The notes: generated by a model from the letters alone, not told the origin. A DNA stretch of 53,207 bases from Steroidobacteraceae bacterium (GCA_035623585.1 DASPTE010000074.1:1-53207), one strand, 5' to 3'. Shown: positions 2,051 to 43,797, counted from the first letter of the stretch. Numbers and translations are program-made.

Positions 2051-4578
2051 ACCCGGTCCTCCCCATCGAGGAGGCGCTGCCGGCGCTGCGGCAGGCTCTC
2101 GGGGCAGGGCGCTCAGCGGTGCTGCAGGCGCCCCCCGGTGCCGGCAAAAGCACGGTCGTACCGCTTGCGCTACTTGAGGAGGAATGGGCGCGGAGCAAGC
2201 GGCTCATCATGCTCGAGCCGCGCCGCCTCGCCGCGCGCGCCATCGCCGCCCGCATGGCGCAGACGCTTGGCGAGAGCGTCGGCGGCACGGTCGGTTACCG
2301 CACGCGGCTCGACACCCGCGTCTCGAGCGCAACCCGCATCGAGGTCGTCACCGAGGGCGTACTCACGCGCTTGCTGCAGCAAGATCCCGCGCTCGAAGGC
2401 GTGGCCGCACTCATCTTCGATGAGTTTCACGAGCGCAATCTGCAGGCGGACTTAGGTCTCGCGCTCGCACTCGATGCGCGCTCGAACCTCACCCCAAAGC
2501 TGCGCCTGCTCGTGATGTCGGCGACGCTCGATGGGGAAGCGGTCGCACGGCTGCTCGCCGATGCAGCGCTCATCAGTGCCCCGGGGCGCAGCTTCCCCAT
2601 CGACATCCACTACGCCGGCAAGGGGCCGCCGCAACTCCCGGCGCCGGCCCGGGGCACCGGGACGCCCGAGGGGCTCGTCGCGAACCTGACTGTGCGTGCG
2701 CTGCGCGAGGAGGAGGGTGATGTGCTCGTCTTCCTCCCCGGCGCGCGCGAAATTCGCCGCGTCCACTCGCTCCTCGAGAGCGCGGGGCTCCCTCCAGGGA
2801 TTCGCGTGCTGCCGCTCTTCGGGGATCTGGCGAGTACGGAGCAGGACGCGGCGCTCGCACCCGCACCGCGCGGTGAACGCCAGGTCGTGCTCGCGACGAA
2901 CATCGCCGAGACCAGCCTCACGATTCCCGGGGTGCGCGTTGTCGTCGATTCGGGGCTCGTGCGGCGCGCGCGCTTTGACCCCGAGACCGGAATGAGCCGT
3001 CTCGAGACCGAGCGCATCTCGCGCGCCTCGAGCGAGCAGCGCGCCGGGCGTGCCGGACGGCTCGCGGCCGGGGTCTGCTACCGTGCGTGGAGCGAGGGGG
3101 CACAGGAGGCCCTGCGGCCGTTCACGCCCCCGGAGATCACCGAAGCAGACCTCGCCCCTCTCGCGCTCGAGCTCGCAGGCTGGGGTGTGCGGGACGCCAC
3201 GCAGCTGAGCTGGCTCGATCCACCTCCCGCTGCGATGCTCGCGAGCGCGCGCGAGCTCCTCGTCCGCCTCGCAGCGCTCGATGCGGCAGGTCGCATCACC
3301 CCGCACGGTCGCGAGATGGCGCGTCTCGCCGTGCACCCGCGCCTCGCGCATATGCTCTTGCGCTCGCGCGATCTCGATGCTGTGCCACTTGCCGCGCAGC
3401 TCGCGGCGCTCCTCTCCGAGCGCGATCTCCTGCACGCGGGCCCAGCTCACGATGCGGACATCCGCACGCGACTTGAGCTTCTGCGGGGCGAGCACGAGCG
3501 AGCTCGGGTCGATCGTGCGGGACTCGAGCGGGCACGGCGCAGTGCACGGGAGCTCGAGCGGCGGCTCGGTGGCGGTAGTGCCGCCACCGGCGATCCGGGA
3601 CTCCTTCTCGCCTTCGCTTATCCCGATCGCATCGGCAGGAAGCGCGCCGGCGGGACGGGCCGCTTCGCGCTCACGAACGGCCGCGGTGCTGCCTTCGCGG
3701 AAGCGCAGGGACTTGCGCAGCGGCAGTTCATCGTCGCGGTGGACCTCGATGACCGCGAGCGCGATGCGCGCATCCTGCTCGCCGCCCCGATCGAAAAAGC
3801 CGACGTCCTCCGGCAGTTCGCCGATCGCATCCGGACACGCGAAGCTGTGGAATGGAACGCGCGCGAAGAGGCCGTGAGCGCGCGCCGCACGCTCGAACTC
3901 GATGCACTCGTGATTGAGGAAAAGCCGCTCGCCGAAATCTCTCCGGATGCTGCCCGGGAGGCCATGCTGAAGGGCGTGCGTGCACTCGGCGTCGCGGCGC
4001 TTCCCTGGGACGAGGACGCACGCGATCTGCAGGCGCGGCTTGAGTTCGTGCGCACGGCTCTCGGTGTGGATGCACGGGGCGGCGCCGAGACGTGGCCGCC
4101 GAGCTCGGATGCCGCGCTCGCGGATTCTCTCGCTACCTGGCTCGCGCCCTGGCTCGAAGGCATCACGCGCCGCGAGCAGCTCTCGCGCTTGCCGCTCGTT
4201 GAAGCTTTGCGTGCGCGGCTGACGCGCGAGCAGCAGCGCGAGCTCGCGGAATGGGCGCCGACCCACCTCACACTCCCGGGCGGCTCACGCGTGCGCGTCG
4301 ACTATCGCGGTGAGCACGCGCCGGCGGTCGCGGTGAAGCTGCAGGAAGTGTTCGGGCTTGCGACGACCCCACGCGTGGGCCGCGGTCGGGTGCCAGTGAC
4401 CTTCAAGCTGCTTTCACCGGCGCAGCGCCCGGTGCAGGTCACGCGCGATCTTGCGAGCTTCTGGCGCGGCTCGTATGCGGAGGTGCGCAAGCAGATGCGC
4501 GGCCGGTATCCGAAGCACTACTGGCCCGAGAATCCTCTTCAGGCGCAGCCCTCGCGTGGCGTGCGCCGACCGCGTTAG
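2047..4578 (+). CDS. hrpB: ATP-dependent RNA helicase HrpB (DEAH-box)
   Basis: 843 aa with Walker A APPGAGKST and DEFHER (DEAH box), length typical of HrpB. The GTG start overlaps the upstream stop (GGTGA). Confidence 0.9.
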   Translation: MNPVLPIEEALPALRQALGAGRSAVLQAPPGAGKSTVVPLALLEEEWARSKRLIMLEPRRLAARAIAARMAQTLGESVGGTVGYRTRLDTRVSSATRIEVVTEGVLTRLLQQDPALEGVAALIFDEFHERNLQADLGLALALDARSNLTPKLRLLVMSATLDGEAVARLLADAALISAPGRSFPIDIHYAGKGPPQLPAPARGTGTPEGLVANLTVRALREEEGDVLVFLPGAREIRRVHSLLESAGLPPGIRVLPLFGDLASTEQDAALAPAPRGERQVVLATNIAETSLTIPGVRVVVDSGLVRRARFDPETGMSRLETERISRASSEQRAGRAGRLAAGVCYRAWSEGAQEALRPFTPPEITEADLAPLALELAGWGVRDATQLSWLDPPPAAMLASARELLVRLAALDAAGRITPHGREMARLAVHPRLAHMLLRSRDLDAVPLAAQLAALLSERDLLHAGPAHDADIRTRLELLRGEHERARVDRAGLERARRSARELERRLGGGSAATGDPGLLLAFAYPDRIGRKRAGGTGRFALTNGRGAAFAEAQGLAQRQFIVAVDLDDRERDARILLAAPIEKADVLRQFADRIRTREAVEWNAREEAVSARRTLELDALVIEEKPLAEISPDAAREAMLKGVRALGVAALPWDEDARDLQARLEFVRTALGVDARGGAETWPPSSDAALADSLATWLAPWLEGITRREQLSRLPLVEALRARLTREQQRELAEWAPTHLTLPGGSRVRVDYRGEHAPAVAVKLQEVFGLATTPRVGRGRVPVTFKLLSPAQRPVQVTRDLASFWRGSYAEVRKQMRGRYPKHYWPENPLQAQPSRGVRRPR

Positions 4579-4645
4579 CCGCAGATCCGCGTGCGGACGA
4601 TCGGGTATATTCCTTCGCACTCAGGTCGAGGGGGACGCGAGAGAC

Positions 4646-5278
4646 GTGTTGTCGGCACAAGGGGCGCTCGATGCGCTGCGCGAGGGCAATCGCCGCTTCG
4701 TGGGCGAACTGCAGGGGGATGCGCGTGCGGGCAACGCGCGCCGCCGCGTGCTGCCCGAGCGGCAGGAGCCGCTCGCCATCGTGCTTGGCTGCTCGGACGC
4801 GCGCGTGCCGGCCGAGATCGTCTTTGATCAGGGGCTTGGGGATCTCTTCGTCATCCGCGTCGCGGGCAACATCGTCGCCCCCTCGCAGGTGGGAAGCGTG
4901 GAATTCGCCGCGGAGAACTTCGGCACGCGACTCGTGGTGGTGCTCGGGCACACGCACTGCGGGGCGATCCAGGCGACGCTGCGCCAGCTCACCCGACCGA
5001 CACGCGAGCAGTCACGCAATCTCGGCTCGATCGTTGATCGCATCCGCCCCGCGGTGCAGGGACTCCTTGAGGAGGGGCGTTCCGACGATTCGGAGTTGCT
5101 CGAGCATCAGGCGGTGCGCGCCAACATCCGCATGTCGGCCGATCATCTGCGCCATGGCTCCGCGATCCTCGAAGAGCTGATCACGAGCGGGGGACTGCGG
5201 GTTGTCGGTGCCGAGTATTCGCTCGAAACCGGCGTCGTCGATTTCTTTGACGGGGTGCCGCTGGCGCCCCCGGGGTGA
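4646..5278 (+). CDS. beta-class carbonic anhydrase
   Basis: Has CSDARVP, FVIRVAGN and HTHCGA zinc-ligand motifs. I trimmed the track ORF (4451) to the GTG at 4646 because the upstream part overlaps hrpB and is Arg-rich nonsense. Confidence 0.85.
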   Translation: MLSAQGALDALREGNRRFVGELQGDARAGNARRRVLPERQEPLAIVLGCSDARVPAEIVFDQGLGDLFVIRVAGNIVAPSQVGSVEFAAENFGTRLVVVLGHTHCGAIQATLRQLTRPTREQSRNLGSIVDRIRPAVQGLLEEGRSDDSELLEHQAVRANIRMSADHLRHGSAILEELITSGGLRVVGAEYSLETGVVDFFDGVPLAPPG

Positions 5279-5288
5279 CTGTCCTCCC

Positions 5289-5750
5289 TTAGCGCGGGGC
5301 GATGCTGCCGAAGCGCCGCTGCAGGAAGTAATCGAGCGAGGCAGCGCCTGCCCCGGCGATCGCAAGCCAGACGAAGAGCGCGAGGTACTCGAACTCGTCG
5401 AAACCAAGGAGCGTCTCGAGCGAGTCAACCTCGGCCCACTTTGCCGCGCGAATGGCGACGATCATGGTGACGCCGAGCGCCCCTGCGGAGATGCGCGTCA
5501 CCAGGCCGAAGAGCAGGAACAGACCGCCGAAGAACTCGACTCCGGATACGAACGGCGTGAGCAGATGCGGGAAGGGAACGCCCCAGCCGATGAAGTTCTC
5601 GGTCACCTGAGGGAGGTTGTGAAGCTTCCCCCAGCCGCTTAAGAGGAACACCCAGCCCACCGTGATGCGCGCAAAAAGCGGCGCGAGCCAGTTGAGATGC
5701 ACAGCCACCTTCTGCGGCCATTCGAGCAGCCACTTCACGAGAAATTTCAT
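5289..5750 (-). CDS. DoxX family membrane protein
   Basis: About 153 aa with four hydrophobic helices and a DoxX-like pattern (ARITVGWVFLLSGWGKL, FGGLFLLFGLVTR). Start moved to the internal ATG (MKFLVKW). Confidence 0.8.
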   Translation of the reverse strand: MKFLVKWLLEWPQKVAVHLNWLAPLFARITVGWVFLLSGWGKLHNLPQVTENFIGWGVPFPHLLTPFVSGVEFFGGLFLLFGLVTRISAGALGVTMIVAIRAAKWAEVDSLETLLGFDEFEYLALFVWLAIAGAGAASLDYFLQRRFGSIAPR

Positions 5751-15805: not shown

Positions 15806-16402
15806 ATGATTTCTTCGCAAATGCTTTTGCGTTACGGGTTCTGGATCTCGAGCATCCTCTGGCTGGGTGGCTGCGGCTCTGCGCCCCCATTGGGCGGCGC
15901 TCTGCCGGCCGGCACCGTGACGCTCGCTGGCGCGCCCCCTTACGCTTTCGACTGCGACGCCCCACCGGGCAAGTACCGCAACGCGACGGTTGCGCTTTCC
16001 GCCAAGGAAGTGAGAGTGAAAGGGTTTGTGCAATTCCTGAGCTGGCAGGGCGACTCGACGTTTGGTCCATGGGCGACGATCGTTTTCGCAGGTCCCGCTC
16101 AGCATAGCGGCGTCGGACTGCAGGCCTTTGTGCTGCCGAACGCACCCGACTCGATTCAGTTTGCGGTCGAATCGGGATTGGCGCAGGAGGGGTACGCGCG
16201 TGCGGTGTTTGCCACGACGCCACTGAGCGCTACGCTGACACCGTTTGAACTCTCGGTTGCCGGACCTGGCAACGTGAATGTCGGCATCGGCTCGGTTACG
16301 AAGACAGTGTCGGTCGCCCCCCTCGAATTGACGCGCGTCAATCTGTCCTGCTCGACCGCGCACGTGCGCTTTTCCGGCGTGACCGTGACCGCGCTGCCGT
16401 AG
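15806..16402 (+). CDS. hypothetical lipoprotein
   Basis: Lipobox LWLGGC after a hydrophobic leader and high GC3. The 3' end overlaps the convergent decarboxylase gene by 65 nt. Confidence 0.5.
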   Translation: MISSQMLLRYGFWISSILWLGGCGSAPPLGGALPAGTVTLAGAPPYAFDCDAPPGKYRNATVALSAKEVRVKGFVQFLSWQGDSTFGPWATIVFAGPAQHSGVGLQAFVLPNAPDSIQFAVESGLAQEGYARAVFATTPLSATLTPFELSVAGPGNVNVGIGSVTKTVSVAPLELTRVNLSCSTAHVRFSGVTVTALP

Positions 16403-17816
16403 GAGCCCGCCGCGCACCCGCGATGCGCTCGATTCTGCTGAGAACGTCCTCGACGTCTTGGATCCGCGTGCGCGGATTCATCACCGTAAGGCGCAGCACC
16501 CTGCGACCTTCGAGCACCGTCGAGCTGATGTACCCGTAGCCGCTCTCGTTGAGCTCTTCCTTGATATTCCAATGGATCCGGTCCGAATCCCTGCCACGTG
16601 CCCGACGCAGCCGAAAGCACAGTATGTTGGAGTGCGGTTCATGCAGGGGTAGCAGAATCCGCGAGCGCGCACAGTAGCGAAACGCCGCCTCGCAGACGCG
16701 GCAGGTGTGGCTCACCAGCGCATCCCACACTCGAGCTCCGTACACCTGCCACACGAGCCAGATCTTCAAGGCATCAAATCGCTGCGAACAGGCGATCGTG
16801 AGTTGACCGATGTCGGGCCAGCGCCTGCGCGCGCCGAACAAATAAGGCGCCCGCTCCGCTAACGGCGTAGCCAACCGCGAGCCATTCCGCACCAGCACCC
16901 CACCGGCGGTGAGCGGCATGAACATCATCTTGTGCGGATCGAATACCAGCGAGTCCGTCGAACCGATGCCCCGAACCCGCCTTTGCAATCGGCGGCTGAA
17001 GGCGAGTGCGGCACCGTGAGCGGCATCGACGTGCAGCCAGGCGCCCTCGCGCGTGGCCAGCCGCCGCAGCTCTTCAAGCCGGTCAAAACTGCCGGTCGAG
17101 GTGGAGCCCGCCGAGCCGACCAAGATGAACTTGCGAAATCCCGCTTTGCGCGCCGCCGCGAACGCTTCGGGGATCCGAGCGACGTCGGTGCAGAACTCGC
17201 GATCCACCGGGACGCGAAATACCGCATCCGGCGACAACCCGAGAATCGCAGCCGCGCGCGCGATCGAGTAGTGCGTCTGGGCGCCGACAATGACCGCGAT
17301 CCGCGCAGTTGCCGTGCGTGCGCGGTCCCGATCCAGAGCCTCGCGCGCCGCAAGCAGCGCCGTTAGGTTTCCGAACGCTCCGCCGGGAACCAAGGTGCCT
17401 TCGGCTGAGCGCGGGTAACCGAAGAGGCTCCTGAACCGAACCATCAGTTGCCGGTCGATCGCGGTCGCGATCGGCGACATTTCCCACACGGCCAGACTCT
17501 GATTCAACGCTGCAACCACCGACTCGATCAGCGCCGCCATCGGAATGGGGGCCGCCACCTGCTGCGCGATGTAACGCGGATGCGCAAGGCGCAGGCTCGA
17601 TCGCTGTATCTGCCGCACCAGGGCCAGCGGACTTCGCCCCCGCGCGCCCAGGATCCGCCCGGCGATTGCGCTTGAGCCGCGCCGCCGCACGGCCCCTTCC
17701 TGCACGAGCAGTGCGTCGGTGGCGATTTGCGCGAACTGCCGTGCGAGTCTCCCGACGGTAGTTCGATCCCAGAGTTCGCGGATGACCGCTGCTTCGGACG
17801 AGGGTGTGCGCTTCAT
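16338..17816 (-). CDS. pyridoxal-phosphate-dependent decarboxylase (group II, aspartate aminotransferase fold)
   Basis: DPHKM PLP-lysine motif, HVDAAHG, GGAFGNLTAL. Start trimmed to MKRTPSS because the upstream part of the track ORF runs through the tRNA gene. Confidence 0.8.
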   Translation of the reverse strand: MKRTPSSEAAVIRELWDRTTVGRLARQFAQIATDALLVQEGAVRRRGSSAIAGRILGARGRSPLALVRQIQRSSLRLAHPRYIAQQVAAPIPMAALIESVVAALNQSLAVWEMSPIATAIDRQLMVRFRSLFGYPRSAEGTLVPGGAFGNLTALLAAREALDRDRARTATARIAVIVGAQTHYSIARAAAILGLSPDAVFRVPVDREFCTDVARIPEAFAAARKAGFRKFILVGSAGSTSTGSFDRLEELRRLATREGAWLHVDAAHGAALAFSRRLQRRVRGIGSTDSLVFDPHKMMFMPLTAGGVLVRNGSRLATPLAERAPYLFGARRRWPDIGQLTIACSQRFDALKIWLVWQVYGARVWDALVSHTCRVCEAAFRYCARSRILLPLHEPHSNILCFRLRRARGRDSDRIHWNIKEELNESGYGYISSTVLEGRRVLRLTVMNPRTRIQDVEDVLSRIERIAGARRAPTAARSRSRRKSARARSSRTD

Positions 17817-17895
17817 GTTGTTGTGCGTGCGTCTGAGAGGTGGTGCAAGCAAAAGTGCTACGGGCCACGCGCCCGAGCGACCCCGTCGGTTGGTA

Positions 17896-18210
17896 TGGGC
17901 CCGGTAGGATTCGAACCTACGACCAAGGGATTCACTTAACCCCGGTGTTTCCACCGGGAGTGGACTATCTCTTCACCCGTGCACACGCCGGTGCATGTGG
18001 GTGCGGGATACTCGAAGCCTGTCATCAAGGGCGCTCAAGCCCTCAGGTAGTCTCTGCACCTTCCGCCGGTGTACCGGCGGCTCGGCTCAGGGTTGCCATG
18101 GGATCGCCCGCCCGAAGGTTTCCCTGAATTCATCCCGTCCACTTCGCGCGTTTCCGCGCGAAGGCACCTTGTCGATGAGTCCCCTGCACTAACCGCTGTG
18201 CTACAGGCCC
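17896..18210 (-). tRNA. tRNA with CAU anticodon (most like tRNA-Ile2, lysidine type), interrupted in the anticodon loop by a group I intron
   Basis: Exon 1 (18210->18175) is GGGCCTGTAGCACAGCGGTTAGTGCAGGGGACTCAT. Exon 2 (17932->17896) is AATCCCTTGGTCGTAGGTTCGAATCCTACCGGGCCCA. Joined, they give a 73-nt cloverleaf in which all four stems pair, with loop CU-CAU-AA. It closely resembles E. coli ileX as I remember it. Confidence 0.85.
17933..18174 (-). ncRNA. group I self-splicing intron (IC3-like, Azoarcus tRNA-Ile type), 242 nt, no ORF
   Basis: Starts CGACAAG-GUG (the GUG guide can pair with exon CAU, giving U-G at the splice site) and ends in G (omega-G). Has three GAAA-capped hairpins. Conserved blocks GUGCCUU, GAAACCU, AUGGCAAC.C.GAGCC and GAAGGUG.AGAGACUA match my recollection of the Azoarcus intron. 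Confidence 0.8.
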
Positions 18211-18369
18211 ATACGCACGCGATTCTAGCAGCCGCTCGAGTGCTGCGGTCGCGCGTTCCGCGGACGATGGTCCCTCTTGCCATCGGCACCAGTGCCGCTA
18301 GCATGGCCCTCCCGACACGCGAGAGCCGGCGTCGGTCATGCACAAAACACCCCGGAGAAGGAGAATCGG

Positions 18370-18978
18370 ATGAAGCTCTATTATCTGACCGGTGCCTGTT
18401 CGCTAGCTTCGAACATTGCGCTGCGCGAAGCGGGACTCAAATTCGAGCTCGTAAAGGTGGACCTCAAGACCAAGAAAGCGAGCGATGGGCTCGATTTTCT
18501 CGAAGTGAACCCCAAGGGCTATGTCCCTGCCCTCACGCTCGATAGTGGCGAGACGCTGACCGAAAACGTCGCGGTGCTGCAGTACGTTGCCGATCGCAAC
18601 CCCGCAGCCAAACTCGCGCCCGCCGCGGGCACCATGGAGCGCTACCGCCTTATCGAGTGGCTGAGCTTCATCAACTCCGAAATACACAAGAATTTCTCGC
18701 CGCTCTTTCGCGCCGACGCGCCCGAGGACATGAAGAACTTCGTGCGCACCAACCTCGCCAACCGACTCAACTACCTCGAGAGCGCGCTCGGGACGAAGAG
18801 CTACCTCATGGGCGAGCAGTTCACCATCGCCGATCCTTACCTCTTCACGGTGCTCGGCTGGGGCAAGCATTTGGGCGTCGACATCGGCAAGTGGCCAAAC
18901 CTGCAGCGCCTCTGCGACCGCGTCGGGGCGCGGCCGCACGTCATCGAGGCGTTGAAGTCTGAGGGTCTGCTGAAATAA
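18370..18978 (+). CDS. glutathione S-transferase (GstA/beta-class-like)
   Basis: MKLYYLTGACSLASNIALREAGL... with the typical beta-class catalytic Cys. GGAGAAGGAG RBS upstream of the ATG at 18370. Confidence 0.85.
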   Translation: MKLYYLTGACSLASNIALREAGLKFELVKVDLKTKKASDGLDFLEVNPKGYVPALTLDSGETLTENVAVLQYVADRNPAAKLAPAAGTMERYRLIEWLSFINSEIHKNFSPLFRADAPEDMKNFVRTNLANRLNYLESALGTKSYLMGEQFTIADPYLFTVLGWGKHLGVDIGKWPNLQRLCDRVGARPHVIEALKSEGLLK

Positions 18979-34154: not shown

Positions 34155-34331
34155 TCGCGCGCCAGCGCGATCAGGGGTCACGCGGTCGGGGGAGGTTTCA
34201 GGGATCTGACTGTCTTGAAGGCAGCAGGTACCCGGTCAGGCAGCGCGGCTCGCTGAGCTCGTAGCGCTTTGATCGGTATTCCCTGTAAATCCGGCATGGC
34301 AACGAGTGCATTCGGAGCGCCGCGGATTGAA

Positions 34332-36479
34332 ATGAATACGGTCGTCAAGATTGATCCCAAAGACATCGACGCGATTCCGTTCCAGGAAGCCTCGCTCGAC
34401 ATCTGGGACAAGAAATATCGGCTGACTGCGAAGGACGGCACGCCCATCGACAAGACGATGGACGATACCTACAAGCGCGTCGCCCGAGCGCTCGCCGAGG
34501 TCGAGAGCGAGGACGTGCGCGAGAGCTGGACCGAGCGTTTTCTCTGGGCGCTGCGGCGCGGCGCGATTCCCGCGGGCCGCGTTACCTCCAACGCCGGAGC
34601 GTTCGAGCACAAGCCGGCAACATCGACGATCAATTGCACGGTCTCGGGCACGATCCATGACTCGATGGACGACATTCTCAAGAAAGTCCACGAGGCGGGA
34701 CTCACGCTGAAGGCGGGATGCGGCATCGGCTATGAGCACTCGACGCTGCGGCCGCGCGGCGCATACGTGTCGGGAGCGGGTGCCTACACGTCCGGCCCGC
34801 TTTCCTTCATGGATATTTTCGACAAGATGTGTTTCACGATCTCGTCTGCGGGTGGAAGGCGCGGGGCGCAGATGGGTACTTTCGATATCGGCCATCCCGA
34901 TGTTATGGAGTTCATCCGCGCCAAGCGCGAGAGCGGGCGTCTGCGACAATTCAATCTCTCGCTCCTCATCACGGATGAGTTTATGCGGGCCGTGCGCGAG
35001 GACCGCGAGTGGAAGCTCGCTTTTCCCGTGTCGCTCAAGGAGTACGAGACCGACAAGCCCGAGCTCGCCGATCAGACAAAGTTCATGTGGCGCGAGTGGC
35101 CGGTGCACGACGGCTACGTCGTCAATGACGACGGCCTCGTCGCTTGCAGGATCTACAAAACTCTGCCGGCGCGGCGCATGTGGGACGTCATCATGACGTC
35201 CACCTATGACTTCGCCGAGCCCGGATTCATTCTCATCGACCGCGTCAATGAGATGAACAACAACTGGTGGTGCGAGAACATTCGCGCGACGAACCCCTGC
35301 GGCGAACAAAGTCTTCCGCCCTACGGCTCATGTTTGCTCGGGTCCATCAACCTAACACGTTTCGTAAAACATCCGTTCACGGATTTCGCGGAATTCGACT
35401 GGTCGGAGTACCGCGAGGTCGTGAAGGTGTTCACGCGCATGCTCGACAATGTCGTCGAGATAAATGGACTTCCACTCGCGCAGCAGCGCGAGGAGATCCT
35501 GCGCAAGCGCCGTCATGGCATGGGATACCTCGGGCTCGGCAGCACGATGACGCTGCTCAAGATGAAGTACGGTTCGCCCGAAGCGGTGCAGTTCACCGAG
35601 GACGTGACGCGCGAGATGGCGGTCGCGGGCTGGGAGGCCGCTCTCGAGCTCGCGCGCGAGAAGGGTCCGGCACCGATCATGAACGAGGAGTTCACGGTTA
35701 CCAGGGAAATGCTGCGCAAGCGCCCGGAGATGGCGCGCGATGGCTGGAAGGCGGGCGTGAAGATCGCAGGCAGGCTCCTGCACGCCAAGTACAGCCGCTA
35801 CATGCAGCGCATCGCGCAGGTCGCACCGCAACTCGTGCACGAGCTCGCCGAGACCGGCGCGCGCTTCACGCACCACACCTCGATCGCGCCCACAGGCACG
35901 ATCTCGCTTTCGCTCGCCAACAATGCCTCGAACGGCATCGAGCCCTCGTTCGCGCATCATTACTTCCGCAACGTGATCCGGGAGGGAAAGAAAACCAAGG
36001 AAAAGATCGACGTCTATTCCTTCGAGCTACTCGCCTACCGCGAGCTGGTCAATCTAGAGGCCAAACCGGGAGCCACCACCGATGCAGAGAGACTGCCCGA
36101 GTACTTCATCGCTTCCGAAGACATCACTCCCAAGGAGCATGTCGAAGTGCAGGCTGCGGCCCAAAAGTGGGTCGATTCATCGATTTCTAAGACGGCGAAC
36201 GTGCCTACGGATTTCCCGTACGCGAAATTCAAAGACATCTATCTGTACGCATATGAGCAGGGGCTGAAGGGCTGCACGACCTTCCGCTTCAACCCGGAGG
36301 CGTTCCAGGGCGTGCTCGTGAAGGAACAGGATCTCAAGAACACGATCTACAAGTTCACCCTCGAAGACGGCTCGGTAGTCGAGGTGCGCGGGGACGAGGA
36401 GATCGAGTACGACGGTGAGGTGCACACCGCCGCCAATCTTTACGACGCGATGCGCGAGGGCTACTACGGCCGCTTCTGA
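34332..36479 (+). CDS. nrdJ: adenosylcobalamin-dependent ribonucleoside-diphosphate reductase, large N-terminal fragment (NrdJa)
   Basis: Class II RNR core motifs (TNPCGEQSLPPYGSCLLGS, SIAPTGTISL, ISKTANVP). Start ambiguous (ATG 34296 or 34332). Confidence 0.9.
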   Translation: MNTVVKIDPKDIDAIPFQEASLDIWDKKYRLTAKDGTPIDKTMDDTYKRVARALAEVESEDVRESWTERFLWALRRGAIPAGRVTSNAGAFEHKPATSTINCTVSGTIHDSMDDILKKVHEAGLTLKAGCGIGYEHSTLRPRGAYVSGAGAYTSGPLSFMDIFDKMCFTISSAGGRRGAQMGTFDIGHPDVMEFIRAKRESGRLRQFNLSLLITDEFMRAVREDREWKLAFPVSLKEYETDKPELADQTKFMWREWPVHDGYVVNDDGLVACRIYKTLPARRMWDVIMTSTYDFAEPGFILIDRVNEMNNNWWCENIRATNPCGEQSLPPYGSCLLGSINLTRFVKHPFTDFAEFDWSEYREVVKVFTRMLDNVVEINGLPLAQQREEILRKRRHGMGYLGLGSTMTLLKMKYGSPEAVQFTEDVTREMAVAGWEAALELAREKGPAPIMNEEFTVTREMLRKRPEMARDGWKAGVKIAGRLLHAKYSRYMQRIAQVAPQLVHELAETGARFTHHTSIAPTGTISLSLANNASNGIEPSFAHHYFRNVIREGKKTKEKIDVYSFELLAYRELVNLEAKPGATTDAERLPEYFIASEDITPKEHVEVQAAAQKWVDSSISKTANVPTDFPYAKFKDIYLYAYEQGLKGCTTFRFNPEAFQGVLVKEQDLKNTIYKFTLEDGSVVEVRGDEEIEYDGEVHTAANLYDAMREGYYGRF

Positions 36480-36508: not shown

Positions 36509-37246
36509 ATGACCAAGATCGACCGCAAGATCGTCAAGTATCAGGTGCAGAAGCCTGAAGAGAAGCCCGCCGCGGCGGCGGCGCAAGCTCCCGCGGCCCC
36601 GCAGGGCGGGGAGCCCGAGATCGTGCGCGACAAGAATGGCGGCACCGCCAAAGTAATCCGCATGCACGAGAAGCTCGAGCGTCCGGAAATGCTGGTCGGC
36701 TCGACCTACAAGATCAAGACGCCGATCTCCGATCACGCCATGTACGTGACGATCAACGACATCGTGCTGAACGAGGGTACCGAGTACGAGCAGCGCCGGC
36801 CGTTCGAGATCTTCATCAACTCGAAGAATCTCGATCACTTCCAGTGGATCGTGGCGCTCACGCGCATCATCTCCGCGGTGTTCCGCAAGGGGGGCGATGT
36901 CACCTTCCTCGTCGATGAGCTCAAGGCGGTGTTCGACCCGCGCGGCGGCTATTGGCAGCCGGGCGGCAAGTTCATGCCATCGATCATCGCCGAGCTCGGC
37001 TACGTCATCGAGAAACACCTGCAGGCGATCGGCTTGATCCGCAAGAGCCCCCTCGATCCCCACCAGCAAAAGTTCGTCGACCAGAAGCGCGCCGAGTACG
37101 AGGCGCGCGCCAAGCAGACCGACGCCTTCGCCAAGCCGCACTTCCCCGAAGGCGCCCAGCTCTGCGGCCGCTGCAGCACGGCGGCGGTCGTCATGATGGA
37201 CGGCTGCATGACGTGCCTGAACTGCGGTGATTCGAAGTGTGGTTAA
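36509..37246 (+). CDS. class II ribonucleotide reductase C-terminal fragment (NrdJb)
   Basis: Lies 29 nt after nrdJa. Continues the RNR C-terminal region (YKIKTP...MYVTIND, PFEIFINSK) and ends in a Cys-rich tail CGRCSTAAVVMMDGCMTCLNCGDSKC. The split architecture is known from Pseudomonas aeruginosa nrdJab. Confidence 0.8.
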   Translation: MTKIDRKIVKYQVQKPEEKPAAAAAQAPAAPQGGEPEIVRDKNGGTAKVIRMHEKLERPEMLVGSTYKIKTPISDHAMYVTINDIVLNEGTEYEQRRPFEIFINSKNLDHFQWIVALTRIISAVFRKGGDVTFLVDELKAVFDPRGGYWQPGGKFMPSIIAELGYVIEKHLQAIGLIRKSPLDPHQQKFVDQKRAEYEARAKQTDAFAKPHFPEGAQLCGRCSTAAVVMMDGCMTCLNCGDSKCG

Positions 37247-37332: not shown

Positions 37333-37435
37333 CAGTGCGGATCTAATCGAGCGCGCTACCGCTCCGTGCGGACGATCGCCTATGATTTCGGGCGTCGCGG
37401 CTGCGCAGCGTTGCGCAAGTGAGGGGAGCCAAAAG

Positions 37436-37726
37436 ATGAGAACACCAAGAGGGATGCTGATCGCGCTTGCGATAGCTGTGATCGGTACGGGCTGCGCGGC
37501 GCAGAAGATCAGCGCCGTGCCGGGTGCCGATGCGGTCAAGGTCACGAGCAATAATGCGGACGTCGCCAACTGCAACCCGCTCGGCAACGTCACCTATTAC
37601 GCAACCGACCCGAATGCGAAGCAGCTGGCACTGAATGCGACCGTCGGCCTTGGCGGGAACACGCTCCAGCTGCTCGATAACCCGGGCCAGTACGGCGGGG
37701 TCGCCTACAAGTGTCCCGTTAAGTAG
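37436..37726 (+). CDS. small lipoprotein (DUF4156-like)
   Basis: Lipobox IGTGC, GAGGGGA RBS, 96 aa. The pattern C..LG.V......A.N.....G.NT......G.AYKC resembles DUF4156 as I recall it. Confidence 0.55.
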   Translation: MRTPRGMLIALAIAVIGTGCAAQKISAVPGADAVKVTSNNADVANCNPLGNVTYYATDPNAKQLALNATVGLGGNTLQLLDNPGQYGGVAYKCPVK

Positions 37727-37865
37727 GAGCGGCTTTCTTCCGTGTTAACCTGCCGCCGCTGACTCAATCCTTTATCGGCGGCGGCGTTGCGTGAACCATC
37801 CCGGGCCGTCTGGCTCGGGATAGGTCCCTCGCGTCCCCCGATCTAAAGCTCGCCACCGGATGCGG

Positions 37866-37893
37866 AAAAAAAGACCCCGCCAGGAGGCGGGGT
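37866..37893 (-). terminator. strong orphan intrinsic terminator (minus strand only)
   Basis: The minus strand reads ACCCCGCC-TCCT-GGCGGGGT, then C and TTTTTTT. On the plus strand the A-run precedes the hairpin, so it is unidirectional. Confidence 0.75.
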
Positions 37894-38041
37894 GTCGGTC
37901 GCTTTGCTTGTGTGGAGGAGTGTCTTCTCGTTGTTATCCGGTCAGCGCGCGATAGTCCCTACCTTCCCCAATTCTCGATTCCGGACCCGCGCGTTCTTTG
38001 ATAATCCCTGTGGCTTTCCTTCCGCCGAAATTTGCTGTTCC
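37866..38041 (-). ncRNA. candidate sigma-54-dependent small RNA (about 175 nt, GGA-rich), family unknown
   Basis: Bounded by the sigma-54 promoter match and the orphan terminator. The interval has no ATG-initiated ORF on the minus strand. It contains 8 GGA triplets and a CUCCUCC tract. Confidence 0.45.
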
Positions 38042-38047
38042 TATGAA

Positions 38048-38067
38048 GTGAGCAACACTCGTGCCAG
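38048..38067 (-). promoter_or_regulatory. sigma-54 (-24/-12) promoter match
   Basis: The minus strand reads C-TGGCACG-AGTG-TTGCT-CAC. This is an exact match to TGGCACG-N4-TTGCW with GG-N10-GC spacing. Confidence 0.55.
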
Positions 38068-38268
38068 CGCGATTTCCCTTTAACTAAATATGCTGCGACG
38101 CATGTGCAGAGCCTCGCGGGAACGAAGCGGCCTTCGCCGAGTCTTCGGCCTTGGAGCCGGTGTCAAAATAGCCGACGCATTGATGCGCGGGCGCGACATC
38201 GTCCGAGCGCAGCGTACGCGGCAAACCTTTGAATTTTCTGGCGAAGCGTGCGGTTTCGAGAGCTGTAA

Positions 38269-40323
38269 ATGATCCCGACAGGAGCTCTAGAAGGTCTCGG
38301 GCGCGCAATTCGGACGCTCGGAACACTCGCCTCGCTCCTCCCGACGATCGCCTGCGCGCTCTTCGGTGCGGGGCGTGCGCTCGCGGGGGAGAACGCGATG
38401 CCGCGCCCCCCGCAGCTCGAACCCGACGTCCAGTTCTGGATCCGCGTCTACACCGAGATCGATACCAACTCGGGATTCCTCCACGACGAGCACGACCTGA
38501 CGGTCGTCTACGAAGCGCTCCACTTCGCGCCCGAAGCACCCCCCGCCGAGCGCGAGCGTTTGGTCGATGACGCCCGCGATCGCATCTCTGCGGCGCTGCG
38601 CCGGATCGTCGATGCAGGGGAGGGACCGCTCTCGGCGGACGATCAGCGCATCAAAGACGCCTGGGGCACGGCGGGCACGCCGGTGCGGCTGCGCCAGGCG
38701 GTCGATGAGGTTCGCTTCCAGCTCGGGCAGTCGGATCGCTTCCGCAGCGGCCTCATCCGCTCCGGAGCCTGGGAGACGCACATCGCCGAGACGCTCGCGA
38801 ACCGCGGATTGCCCGCAGAGCTCGCAGTCCTGCCGCACGTCGAATCCTCTTTCAACCCGGCGGCGTATTCGAAGGCGGGCGCCGCGGGCCTCTGGCAGTT
38901 CATGCGCTCGACGGGGCGGCGCTACATGCGCATCGACACCGCCGTGGACGATCGGCTCGATCCCTTCCGCTCCACCGAGGCCGCCGCGCAGCTCCTCGCC
39001 TACAACTACCACGTGCTTGGCACCTGGCCGCTCGCGCTGACGGCCTATAACCACGGCACTGCGGGCGTGCGTCACGCGGTCGAGACGCTCGGCACCGACG
39101 ACATTGTGACGATCGTGCGCCACTACACGAGCCGCACGTTCGGCTTCGCCTCGCGCAACTTCTACGTCTCGTTTCTCGCCGCACTCGAGATCGATCACAA
39201 CCCGAAGAAGTACTTCGGCGCACTCGAGCGCGAGCGGGAGGTGCGCTTCCAGGAGGTGCAACTGCCCGCCTACGTGCCCGCGGCGGCGCTCACGCGCACG
39301 CTCCAGATCGACACGGATAAGCTGCGCGCCCTGAACCCGGCACTCCTGCCTGGAGTGTGGAGCGGCGAGCAGCGCGTACCTCGGGCCTATCGGCTGCGCT
39401 TACCCCGCGAGGGAACCCCACTTACGAACGAGCAGTTCGCGAAACAGCTCAGCCCCGAGGACATGTTCGCCGGCCAGCGCAGCCCGCGCCGCTACAAGGT
39501 GCAACAGGGCGACACGCTCGCGAATATCGCCGATCGCTACGGCGTGTCGATCGAGACACTGGCGCGCAAGAACGGCTTGCGCACGAGTGCGGGGCTGCAT
39601 GCCGGCCACATGCTCACGATACCCGAGGCATCGCCCGGTCTTCTCGTGGCGGCCAACACGCCGCCACCGCGCAGGGGAGTCGTCACGATCATTCCGCTGC
39701 CACCCGAAGTCGCCCCGGGCGGAGCCGTGCCGGTCGAGGTCGCGCAGCGCGAGAGCGCGGAGGACGCCGCGGCGGCGGCGAAATCGCGCGCGGCGGCGGC
39801 CACGAACGTGGAGCCGCTCTCGGCCGCACAGGCCGAGGCGGTCGGACCTGCGATCGGCCCCGCCGCCGAGAGTACGCAAAGCGCCGATCCCACCGATTAC
39901 AGCGTCGCGCAGGATGACACGATCCGCGTCGCCCCCGATGAGACGCTCGGGCACTACGCCGACTGGCTTGGCATCAGCGCGACCCGCGTACGCGAACTCA
40001 ACAACATGGCCGGTAAGAGCGCGGTGCTCATCGGCGAGCGCATCAAGCTCGATTTCCACAAAGTGACGCACGAGGTGTTTGAAGCGCGCCGTCGTGACTA
40101 TCACCAGCAGCTGCAGGCGAGCTACTTCGCCGCGCACCGCATCGTTGGCACCGAGGTGTACATCGCCCGCCCCGGGGATTCGCCCTGGACGCTCACGCAA
40201 CACGGCCCGCGGCTGCCGCTTTGGCTCCTGCAGCAGTACAACCCCGATGTCGATTTCTCGGCACTGCGCGCCGGCACGCAACTCGTGATGCCGCGCGTGC
40301 AGGAAATCGCCGCGGGCGGCTGA
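38269..40323 (+). CDS. mltD: membrane-bound lytic murein transglycosylase D-like (SLT domain plus three LysM repeats)
   Basis: SLT catalytic region (ESSFNPAAYSKAGAAGLWQFM) and LysM repeats (YKVQQGDTLANIADRYGVSIETLARKNGL and two more). Confidence 0.85.
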   Translation: MIPTGALEGLGRAIRTLGTLASLLPTIACALFGAGRALAGENAMPRPPQLEPDVQFWIRVYTEIDTNSGFLHDEHDLTVVYEALHFAPEAPPAERERLVDDARDRISAALRRIVDAGEGPLSADDQRIKDAWGTAGTPVRLRQAVDEVRFQLGQSDRFRSGLIRSGAWETHIAETLANRGLPAELAVLPHVESSFNPAAYSKAGAAGLWQFMRSTGRRYMRIDTAVDDRLDPFRSTEAAAQLLAYNYHVLGTWPLALTAYNHGTAGVRHAVETLGTDDIVTIVRHYTSRTFGFASRNFYVSFLAALEIDHNPKKYFGALEREREVRFQEVQLPAYVPAAALTRTLQIDTDKLRALNPALLPGVWSGEQRVPRAYRLRLPREGTPLTNEQFAKQLSPEDMFAGQRSPRRYKVQQGDTLANIADRYGVSIETLARKNGLRTSAGLHAGHMLTIPEASPGLLVAANTPPPRRGVVTIIPLPPEVAPGGAVPVEVAQRESAEDAAAAAKSRAAAATNVEPLSAAQAEAVGPAIGPAAESTQSADPTDYSVAQDDTIRVAPDETLGHYADWLGISATRVRELNNMAGKSAVLIGERIKLDFHKVTHEVFEARRRDYHQQLQASYFAAHRIVGTEVYIARPGDSPWTLTQHGPRLPLWLLQQYNPDVDFSALRAGTQLVMPRVQEIAAGG

Positions 40324-42945: not shown

Positions 42946-43797
<852 letters not shown>

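Follow-up and report, generated by a model that had tools for sequence, protein, structure and literature searches.

The 53,207-nt stretch of DNA from a Steroidobacteraceae bacterium analysed here (GCA_035623585.1, DASPTE010000074.1:1-53207; hereafter the window) carries, in the gap upstream of the lytic transglycosylase gene mltD and on the opposite strand, a locus that is, with little room for doubt, a sigma-54-transcribed structured RNA. The comparative evidence for this RNA is solid, and neither Rfam nor the literature searched contains a description of it. As for the reading as a whole, we lean towards a small RNA (sRNA) that probably depends on the response regulator PrsR and on sigma-54, probably acts by Hfq-type base pairing and derives from the mRNA of a PEP-CTERM gene. 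The elements of the transcription unit are the following.

38051..38066, minus strand: sigma-54 promoter TGGCACGAGTGTTGCT, with TGGCAC at -24 and TTGCT at -12, an exact match to the consensus
37866..38040, minus strand: predicted sRNA of about 175 nt, its start placed about 12 nt (+/-2) past the GC of the -12 element and its 3' end in the U-run
37947..37992, minus strand: central imperfect hairpin SL2, in which 37992..37983 is paired with 37958..37947
37894..37939, minus strand: highly conserved, mostly unpaired block GGAUAACAACGAGAAGACACUCCUCCACACAAGCAAAGCGACCGAC
37866..37893, minus strand: intrinsic terminator, with an 8-bp GC stem, a 4-nt loop, a C and then T7 (U7 in the RNA)

The pattern TGGCAC-N5-TTGCW has a single exact occurrence in the 53-kb window, where 0.02 would be expected from shuffles, and the GG at -24, the GC at -12, their spacing and their conservation in orthologues place it by sequence in the sigma-54 class. 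The terminator stem-loop, ACCCCGCC-TCCT-GGCGGGGT, occupies 37893..37874 and is followed by the C and the T7 that run to 37866. Both promoter and terminator lie within the 542 bp (37726 to 38269) that separate mltD from an open reading frame (ORF) of 114 amino acids. The closest upstream ORF of at least 150 amino acids on the minus strand (42946..43788) is about 4.9 kb away, and the sense strand of the interval between promoter and terminator contains no ORF of at least 10 codons in the window copy. An earlier reading of this DNA, made from the sequence alone (hereafter the sequence-only reading), had pointed out this gap, the exact and, as it turns out, unique -24/-12 match, the strong terminator, the lack of a minus-strand gene upstream, the ORF-free interval and a CUCCUCC tract before the terminator (found at 37920..37914), all of which hold. 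Its proposal that a local sigma-54 promoter and an orphan terminator delimit a non-coding RNA of about 175 nt is supported as well, all these elements being conserved together at 99 loci.

The comparison drew on 80 mltD loci, whose MltD proteins share at most 70% amino-acid identity with that of the window and place it in the Steroidobacteraceae (Gammaproteobacteria). A sigma-54 site on the opposite strand is found in 24 of these 80 loci, about 240-460 bp upstream of the start of the mltD match. In 21 of those 24 loci the site is followed, as it is in the window, by a complete orthologous RNA with the same architecture and a length of 166-190 nt, and a further copy (locus L028) is cut by a contig end. 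The family architecture comprises a 5' hairpin, a purine-rich linker, the imperfect central hairpin, the block GGAUAACAACGAGAAGACGCUCCUCCACACAAGCAAGCGACCGAC and a CCCCGC..GCGGGG terminator with U7-8. Searching with a pattern derived from the block led to 77 loci in soil metagenomes; TGGCAY-N5-TTGC lies 128-160 nt upstream of the block in 70/70 of those with enough upstream sequence, and the terminator follows in all. This promoter motif is thus carried by every family member, genomic (24 loci) or metagenomic (70/70), for which enough upstream sequence is available. The mltD upstream regions of L020-L027 (L026 apart), L054, L070, L071 and others, from Steroidobacteraceae and Woeseiaceae, are without promoter, box and RNA.

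A covariance model, R1, was built from nine close members with a hand-specified structure, followed by realignment. The structure that RNAalifold derived from a plain MAFFT alignment made no sense, the hairpins being misaligned there, and was discarded. The search with R1 retrieved 99 copies, 84 of them distinct, from Steroidobacteraceae genomes and soil metagenomes, and matches the window at 37868..38048 (80.3 bits, E=7e-18). Among the 84 distinct sequences, 95.1% of the paired cells can form their pair, versus 86.1% in column shuffles and 38-48% with slid partners, and compensatory changes are seen in 19 of the 24 base pairs (114 cells). The central hairpin SL2, nine model pairs of which form in the window copy, shows such changes at 10 of its 11 pairs. 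In the terminator helix, pairing reaches 99.8% over the whole family and 4 pairs covary. These pair counts come from an alignment fitted to the model and are biased towards its structure, which weakens them; even so, without a real structure it would be hard to account for the result of the slid-partner control and for so many double changes. Comparison with relatives, which the sequence-only reading had suggested as a check, thus reveals a promoter, an RNA structure and a terminator conserved with covariation.

Most of the invariant or near-invariant columns belong to the block, the terminator and the U tail, and identity falls from 0.83 in the block to 0.32 straight after the U-run. Furthermore, the RNA is kept across lineages whose MltD proteins are only 55-57% identical. 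The block, of about 45 nt and bounded by AUAACAACGAGAAGA..CUCCUCCACACAAGCAAGCGACC, includes from 5' to 3' an A-rich ARN-like tract, the CU-rich anti-Shine-Dalgarno-like CUCCUCC (37920..37914) and AAGCAAGCGACC; its mean predicted unpaired probability is 0.55-0.77. Judging from the alignment, this 3' block is the selected part of the RNA. No Rfam family matches the window copy or the other members. The models of Csr/Rsm, GlmY/GlmZ, Qrr, NrsZ and CrcZ give no match even at E<=10, in agreement with the sequence-only reading, which had not recognised the RNA as any of the families it named; the best Rfam matches in 37700..38300 are chance terminator similarities (E>=1.3).

The region upstream of the promoter carries three further elements.

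38264..38280, minus strand: distal activator box TGTCGGGATCATTTACA, of the PEP-CTERM-box type, 213-214 nt upstream of TGGCAC
38161..38177, minus strand: proximal activator box CGTCGGCTATTTTGACA, about 110 nt upstream, with its 3' end 94 nt from TGGCAC
38084..38099, minus strand: putative degenerate element GTCGCAGCATATTTAG, deduced from the upstream alignment and from reading the sequence

The distal and proximal boxes are each 17 nt long and lie 103 nt apart. They are the only two occurrences of GTCG-N6-TTKACA in the window, versus 0.08 expected. In the aligned upstream regions, a box of 16-17 nt, (T/C)GTCG-N6-TT(T/G)ACA, is found at fixed distances from TGGCAC in at least 80 members, and about 1.3 Mb of fetched loci contain just 3 further matches to it away from this promoter. 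The box is at -166 in most members, which also have a conserved element, GTGC..GTCACA (GTGCGCCGCGTCACA), at -69. In the lineage of L015-L019, boxes are at -256 and -155; the layout with two boxes spaced by 101-103 nt is shared by L015-L019, L087, L122, L141, L146, L161 and L164. The element at 38084..38099 is possibly a relic of the third element of the family (GTGCGCCGCGTCACA, -69), moved towards the promoter by a lineage-specific deletion of about 50 bp. The sequence-only reading had seen no convincing enhancer site in this region, which has to be corrected, given the two conserved 17-nt boxes at 38280..38264 and 38177..38161.

The distal box (38264..38280) overlaps the annotated ATG of mltD (38269), and in L017 its distance from the inferred start of mltD, as estimated from coordinates, is also no more than a few nt. 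An activator bound there might affect mltD too, or the mltD start might be mis-assigned.

Such boxes are known from another context. A 17-nt motif ending in TTTACA (motif 1), sometimes repeated, was described upstream of proteobacterial PEP-CTERM genes, at 62.8 +/- 10.6 nt (range 32-92) from a sigma-54 site, and was assigned to the response regulator PrsR, along with PrsK and PrsT; a few motif-1 sites precede genes other than PEP-CTERM genes (Haft et al. 2006, PMC1569441). The dependence of a PEP-CTERM gene on RpoN was shown by experiment in Aquincola (PMC9850573). A box consensus was derived independently from true PEP-CTERM genes. In independent PEP-CTERM/exosortase loci (L172, L173), TGTCG-N6-TTTACA is located 58-64 nt before sigma-54 sites. 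Thus, L172, beside Wzz/GNVR and polysaccharide deacetylase genes, carries two boxes, TGTCGGCTTTTTTTACA and, 64 nt before TGGCACACTTACTGCT, TGTCGTAAACCTTTACA. In the same way, L173, which encodes a PrsT-like TPR protein, three PEP-CTERM proteins and an EpsH exosortase, carries TGTCGAGAATCTTTACA and CGTCGATATTTTTTACA about 60 nt before sigma-54 sites. A box, TGTCGGTTTGCTTTACA, is also found in L165/L166 between a gene encoding a Response_reg, Sigma54_activat and HTH_8 regulator and that of a TPR protein, and another, GTCGAGGCTTCTTACA, in L167/L168 beside a GAF histidine kinase gene. The PEP-CTERM genes preceded by a box sit beside EpsH exosortase, PrsT-like TPR, PrsR-like and PrsK-like genes. 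L173 is in itself a compact marine locus (2501..5744), in which the PrsT-like TPR gene is followed by three tandem PEP-CTERM genes and then by the EpsH exosortase gene; every one of these PEP-CTERM genes ends in a separate terminator, and two or more of them are preceded by an individual box and sigma-54 site, which makes this locus a useful reference set for the box consensus.

The two window boxes agree with the TGTCG-N6-TTTACA consensus of these true PEP-CTERM loci, which suggests that the RNA probably belongs to the PEP-CTERM-box regulon. Since both boxes match those found before PEP-CTERM genes, the activator of the RNA promoter is most likely PrsR, with its kinase PrsK. Neither a PEP-CTERM ORF nor an enhancer-binding protein with the GAFTGA motif turned up when the 53-kb window was scanned.

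The transcript of the window itself encodes no PEP-CTERM protein, unlike the orthologous slot in L034, L035, L158, L161, L164 and L170. The promoter and boxes are also found upstream of mltD in L034 and L035, where they precede an ORF of 249 amino acids; its product is a DUF4114 protein that carries a PEP-CTERM sorting signal (TIGR02595, 25.1 bits for a cut-off of 16). Homologues of the L034 protein at 84, 60, 55 and 52% identity are all encoded in the same slot (L158, L161, L164, L170/L171), whose order is mltD, boxes, sigma-54 promoter, DUF4114/PEP-CTERM gene, terminator, TSCPD gene and ribonucleotide reductase gene. The flanks of the window RNA are those of this slot, with mltD on one side and the TSCPD and ribonucleotide reductase genes on the other. 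Furthermore, the conserved block of the sRNA, together with the terminator, is the 3' untranslated region (3'UTR) of the PEP-CTERM gene in L034, L035 and L158 (43-49 bits), where the stop codon lies inside GGAUAAC. In a neighbour-joining tree of MltD, all the sRNA loci form one clade, nested among gene-bearing lineages and others from which everything has been lost. This is most simply explained if the coding region was lost once, the enhancer, the promoter and the 3' module staying behind, and it seems likely that the RNA arose in this way from a PEP-CTERM gene. This descent rests on synteny, promoter, boxes and 3' module, the part that concerns the 5' half being positional only; that the GGA-rich linker is a relic Shine-Dalgarno sequence is speculation.

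Other members of the slot have followed different paths. L026 (3397..3547, minus strand) carries, in this one genome only, an A-rich RNA of about 135 nt that lacks a coding sequence and contains AGAAGAA repeats. Its promoter, TGGCACATGCCTTGCA, and its terminator are the same as in the sister, gene-bearing L170/L171, and it appears to be a second, independent deletion of the coding region. In L161 (3757..3900) and L164 (3790..3950), the DUF4114/PEP-CTERM genes have 3'UTRs of 100-150 nt consisting mostly of AAC/AAG/GAA repeats before the terminator, without the CUCCUCC block; these look like Hfq-binding or CrcZ-like tracts on an mRNA.

Hfq-dependent sRNAs typically combine an A-rich tract and a U tail, which contact Hfq, with a CU-rich seed directed at ribosome-binding sites. 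The sequence features of this class are present here, namely the U7-U8 tail, the conserved AUAACAACGAGAAGA and CUCCUCCACA, and a mostly unpaired block. The mechanism that we propose would involve a regulatory RNA of about 175 nt with a gene of its own, transcribed from a sigma-54 promoter that depends on an enhancer and would be controlled by PrsR, acting at the two 17-nt boxes and partnered by PrsK. The A-rich tract (AAC AAC GAG AAG) and the U tail would anchor Hfq, while the CU-rich seed CUCCUCCACA (CUCCUCC) would pair with the ribosome-binding sites of target mRNAs and occlude them. The ancestor would be the DUF4114/PEP-CTERM gene held by the slot in more basal Steroidobacteraceae, the coding region of which would have been lost while the enhancer, the promoter and the module made of 3'UTR and terminator were retained. 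As the parent coding region is absent, the window RNA would be a primary transcript. By analogy with known Hfq-dependent sRNAs, the chances of a base-pairing mechanism that relies on Hfq appear evenly balanced. An icaR-like pairing of the CU-rich block was also considered and rejected, as the complementarity of this block with the RNA's own 5' purine-rich part or with the ribosome-binding site of the parent mRNA is no better than that of shuffles.

Several observations count against this overall picture. Concerning the RNA, the window transcript and its start site are predictions from sequence. Folded as a single sequence, the window RNA does not exceed shuffles in stability (z=0.49), so that the RNA structure is supported by comparison alone. 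The window copy is a divergent family member, with 76% identity to its nearest relative over the full length (its 3' 85 nt are 92% identical to relatives), and the 5' hairpin of the family is missing from it in the model alignment. The seed is predicted to be only moderately accessible (0.46 for the window copy and 0.55 as the family mean), and a target scan of the start regions in the 53-kb window yielded chance GC-rich duplexes only and no target. Concerning the regulon, the window boxes fit motif 1 of Haft et al. as described in words. Between box and promoter there are 94 nt in the window copy and, in most members, about 150 nt, versus 32-92 nt in the published sites; the degenerate element that occupies the canonical distance (-69) in most members is not there in the window; and the PrsR, PrsK and exosortase genes are absent from the 53-kb window. 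Concerning the origin, the 5' half of the sRNA shows no significant sequence similarity to the 5'UTR of the PEP-CTERM mRNA.

Other explanations of the locus should also be considered. The sequence-only reading favoured a sponge RNA, whose GGA motifs would sequester the translational repressor CsrA/RsmA. The window copy does contain 7-8 GGA triplets, of which four have the form A(N)GGA, and in most members the 5' hairpin is followed by a motif of the RGGAA type. The count given in that reading is therefore right (7 in the RNA, 8 with the AGGAAC at the predicted start) but the excess that it saw over expectation is not: in dinucleotide-preserving shuffles of the window sequence, the 103 nt before the block hold 6 GGA for 4.6 expected (p=0.26) and 4 A(N)GGA for 2.2 expected (p=0.20). 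Over 22 orthologues, 79 GGA are found for 65 expected, which is no enrichment, and half of these orthologues (11 of 22) have no A(N)GGA in the 5' part. The positions of GGA show little conservation, the part that bears them is the least conserved one, and GGAUAAC provides the sole GGA of the conserved block. Moreover, none of the Csr/Rsm models of Rfam matches at E<=10, and the promoter is a sigma-54 promoter with PEP-CTERM-type boxes, not one of the GacA type. The sponge, rejected on these GGA statistics, thus appears very improbable. A small protein or a leader peptide is still harder to believe in. Although ORFs of 10-57 codons occur in some orthologues, the window copy has no sense ORF of at least 10 codons, and the ORFs of relatives are in differing frames, show no conservation and mostly run into the terminator without a stop. 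The lengths of indels are not divisible by three, and the pattern of substitutions is that of base pairing rather than of codons. This candidate was rejected for want of a conserved frame or codon pattern; the conserved small ORF that the sequence-only reading had envisaged as an alternative account of the locus did not turn up.

The invariant block itself could be explained otherwise, by a titration of protein in the manner of CrcZ, which is also sigma-54-dependent. The A-rich AAC/AAG tract would then bind the distal face of Hfq, or another protein that binds A-rich RNA, in competition with mRNAs. The high conservation of AUAACAACGAGAAGA agrees with this, as do the much longer AAC/AAG tracts found at the same position in the PEP-CTERM genes of L161/L164 and in the L026 RNA. 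However, the sRNA family has a single short tract of 3-4 ARN triplets, which suits an Hfq anchor better than a sponge; titration leaves the equally invariant CU-rich and AAGCAAGCGACC parts unexplained, and the CrcZ model of Rfam does not match, all of which makes this explanation unlikely. It could also be argued that the RNA has no function, the enhancer and promoter being kept for the control of the divergent mltD by PrsR and the transcript being a by-product of a decayed PEP-CTERM gene. The descent of the locus from a protein gene is in line with such a relic, as are the distal box that overlaps or abuts the mltD start codon and L026, which looks like a second deletion of a coding region in one genome. 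Nevertheless, the transcribed part is kept across lineages with MltD proteins 55-57% identical; compensatory changes in two internal helices, the block of about 45 nt and the terminator are maintained while the sequence beyond is randomised; and the same boxes precede PEP-CTERM genes that do not adjoin mltD. As a by-product would not retain covariation, block and terminator, a mere relic is improbable.

A functional sRNA derived from a PEP-CTERM mRNA would resemble several known systems. Like Qrr1-5 (LuxO), GlmY/GlmZ (GlrR), CrcZ/CrcY (CbrB) and NrsZ (NtrC), it is a stand-alone sRNA gene with a -24/-12 promoter, sites for an activator of the NtrC family and an intrinsic terminator, and in all of them a conserved single-stranded region is likely the functional part. 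However, Qrr, GlmY/GlmZ, CrcZ and NrsZ have no likeness to this RNA in sequence or structure (models at E<=10), and the activator sites are PEP-CTERM-type boxes here, not LuxO, GlrR, CbrB or NtrC sites. The regulon (surface proteins related to exosortase and exopolysaccharide) and the clade (soil Steroidobacteraceae) also differ, and the origin of this RNA, unlike that of the others, can be traced to a protein gene. With the PEP-CTERM box/PrsR regulon (PMC1569441), the locus shares the repeated 17-nt box with its TT(T/G)ACA end, the sigma-54 site and the long intergenic region, and the orthologous slot of relatives holds a true PEP-CTERM gene. The product is a PEP-CTERM protein there and a non-coding RNA here, and the spacer here reaches or exceeds the 92 nt that are the largest published value.

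CpxQ, SroC, DapZ and MicL are sRNAs derived from 3'UTRs, and the functional module of the present RNA is likewise the 3' end of an mRNA with its terminator, literally so in L034, L035 and L158. In the window and in the 98 other loci, by contrast, the parent coding region is gone, and the RNA would be read from the parent gene's own promoter, without processing or internal promoter. CsrB, RsmY and RsmZ are of similar size and have in common with the window copy some GGA triplets, which are neither enriched nor conserved here; no model match is found and the promoter type is another one. The CcsR/'cuckoo' CCUCCUCCC RNAs of Alphaproteobacteria and RsaE/RoxS, with their C-rich motifs, are sRNAs with a CU-rich anti-Shine-Dalgarno seed. 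They likewise have a conserved tract (here CUCCUCC) able to pair with ribosome-binding sites, but the tract is located here in an unstructured 3' block and not in hairpin loops, there is no homology, and promoter and clade are different.

Bacteria of soil and sediment and floc-forming bacteria widely possess the PEP-CTERM/exosortase system, whose regulation by PrsK/PrsR is known almost solely through comparative genomics. No RNA regulator assigned to PEP-CTERM/PrsK/PrsR was found in Rfam or in the literature searched. A conserved sRNA under the same enhancer would give the control of matrix and surface proteins a post-transcriptional arm. We tentatively propose, as a possibility that falls somewhat short of probable, that a PEP-CTERM/exosortase mRNA was turned into a dedicated riboregulator by a coding-region deletion that fused the promoter to the 3'UTR, and was then held by purifying selection across a soil clade. 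If so, the PrsK/PrsR system would have its first assigned sRNA, the signal that normally induces surface and matrix proteins could also reprogramme the translation of other genes, and the 3'UTRs of PEP-CTERM mRNAs would be regulatory modules themselves. The locus would also offer a clean, datable case of the birth of an sRNA gene, in which the coding region was lost while the promoter and an already functional 3'UTR were kept. The alignment and the covariance model would let RNA family databases add this family, and pipelines annotating metagenome-assembled genomes could then fill this 540-bp 'gap'.

The genes that surround the RNA in the window are the following.

38269..40323, plus strand: mltD, an SLT/LysM lytic transglycosylase gene, right flank of the gap
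37382..37726, plus strand: ORF of 114 amino acids, without family match, left flank of the gap
36509..37246: TSCPD gene
34269..36479: ribonucleotide reductase gene, in which only ribonucleotide reductase domains are seen

In L164 (5773..6789), the ribonucleotide reductase that neighbours the PEP-CTERM gene contains an intein with a LAGLIDADG endonuclease domain (Pfam).

Elsewhere in the window, a tRNA gene (17895..18211, minus strand) has its anticodon loop interrupted by a group I intron of about 242 nt, which matches RF00028 of Rfam at 17941..18187 with 64.6 bits. ARAGORN finds no tRNA in the window with its default settings and calls one with the intron option, the anticodon assignment being uncertain. 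This intron-bearing gene is located between a GST gene (18277..18978, plus strand) and the gene of a pyridoxal phosphate (PLP)-dependent decarboxylase (16338..17954, minus strand).

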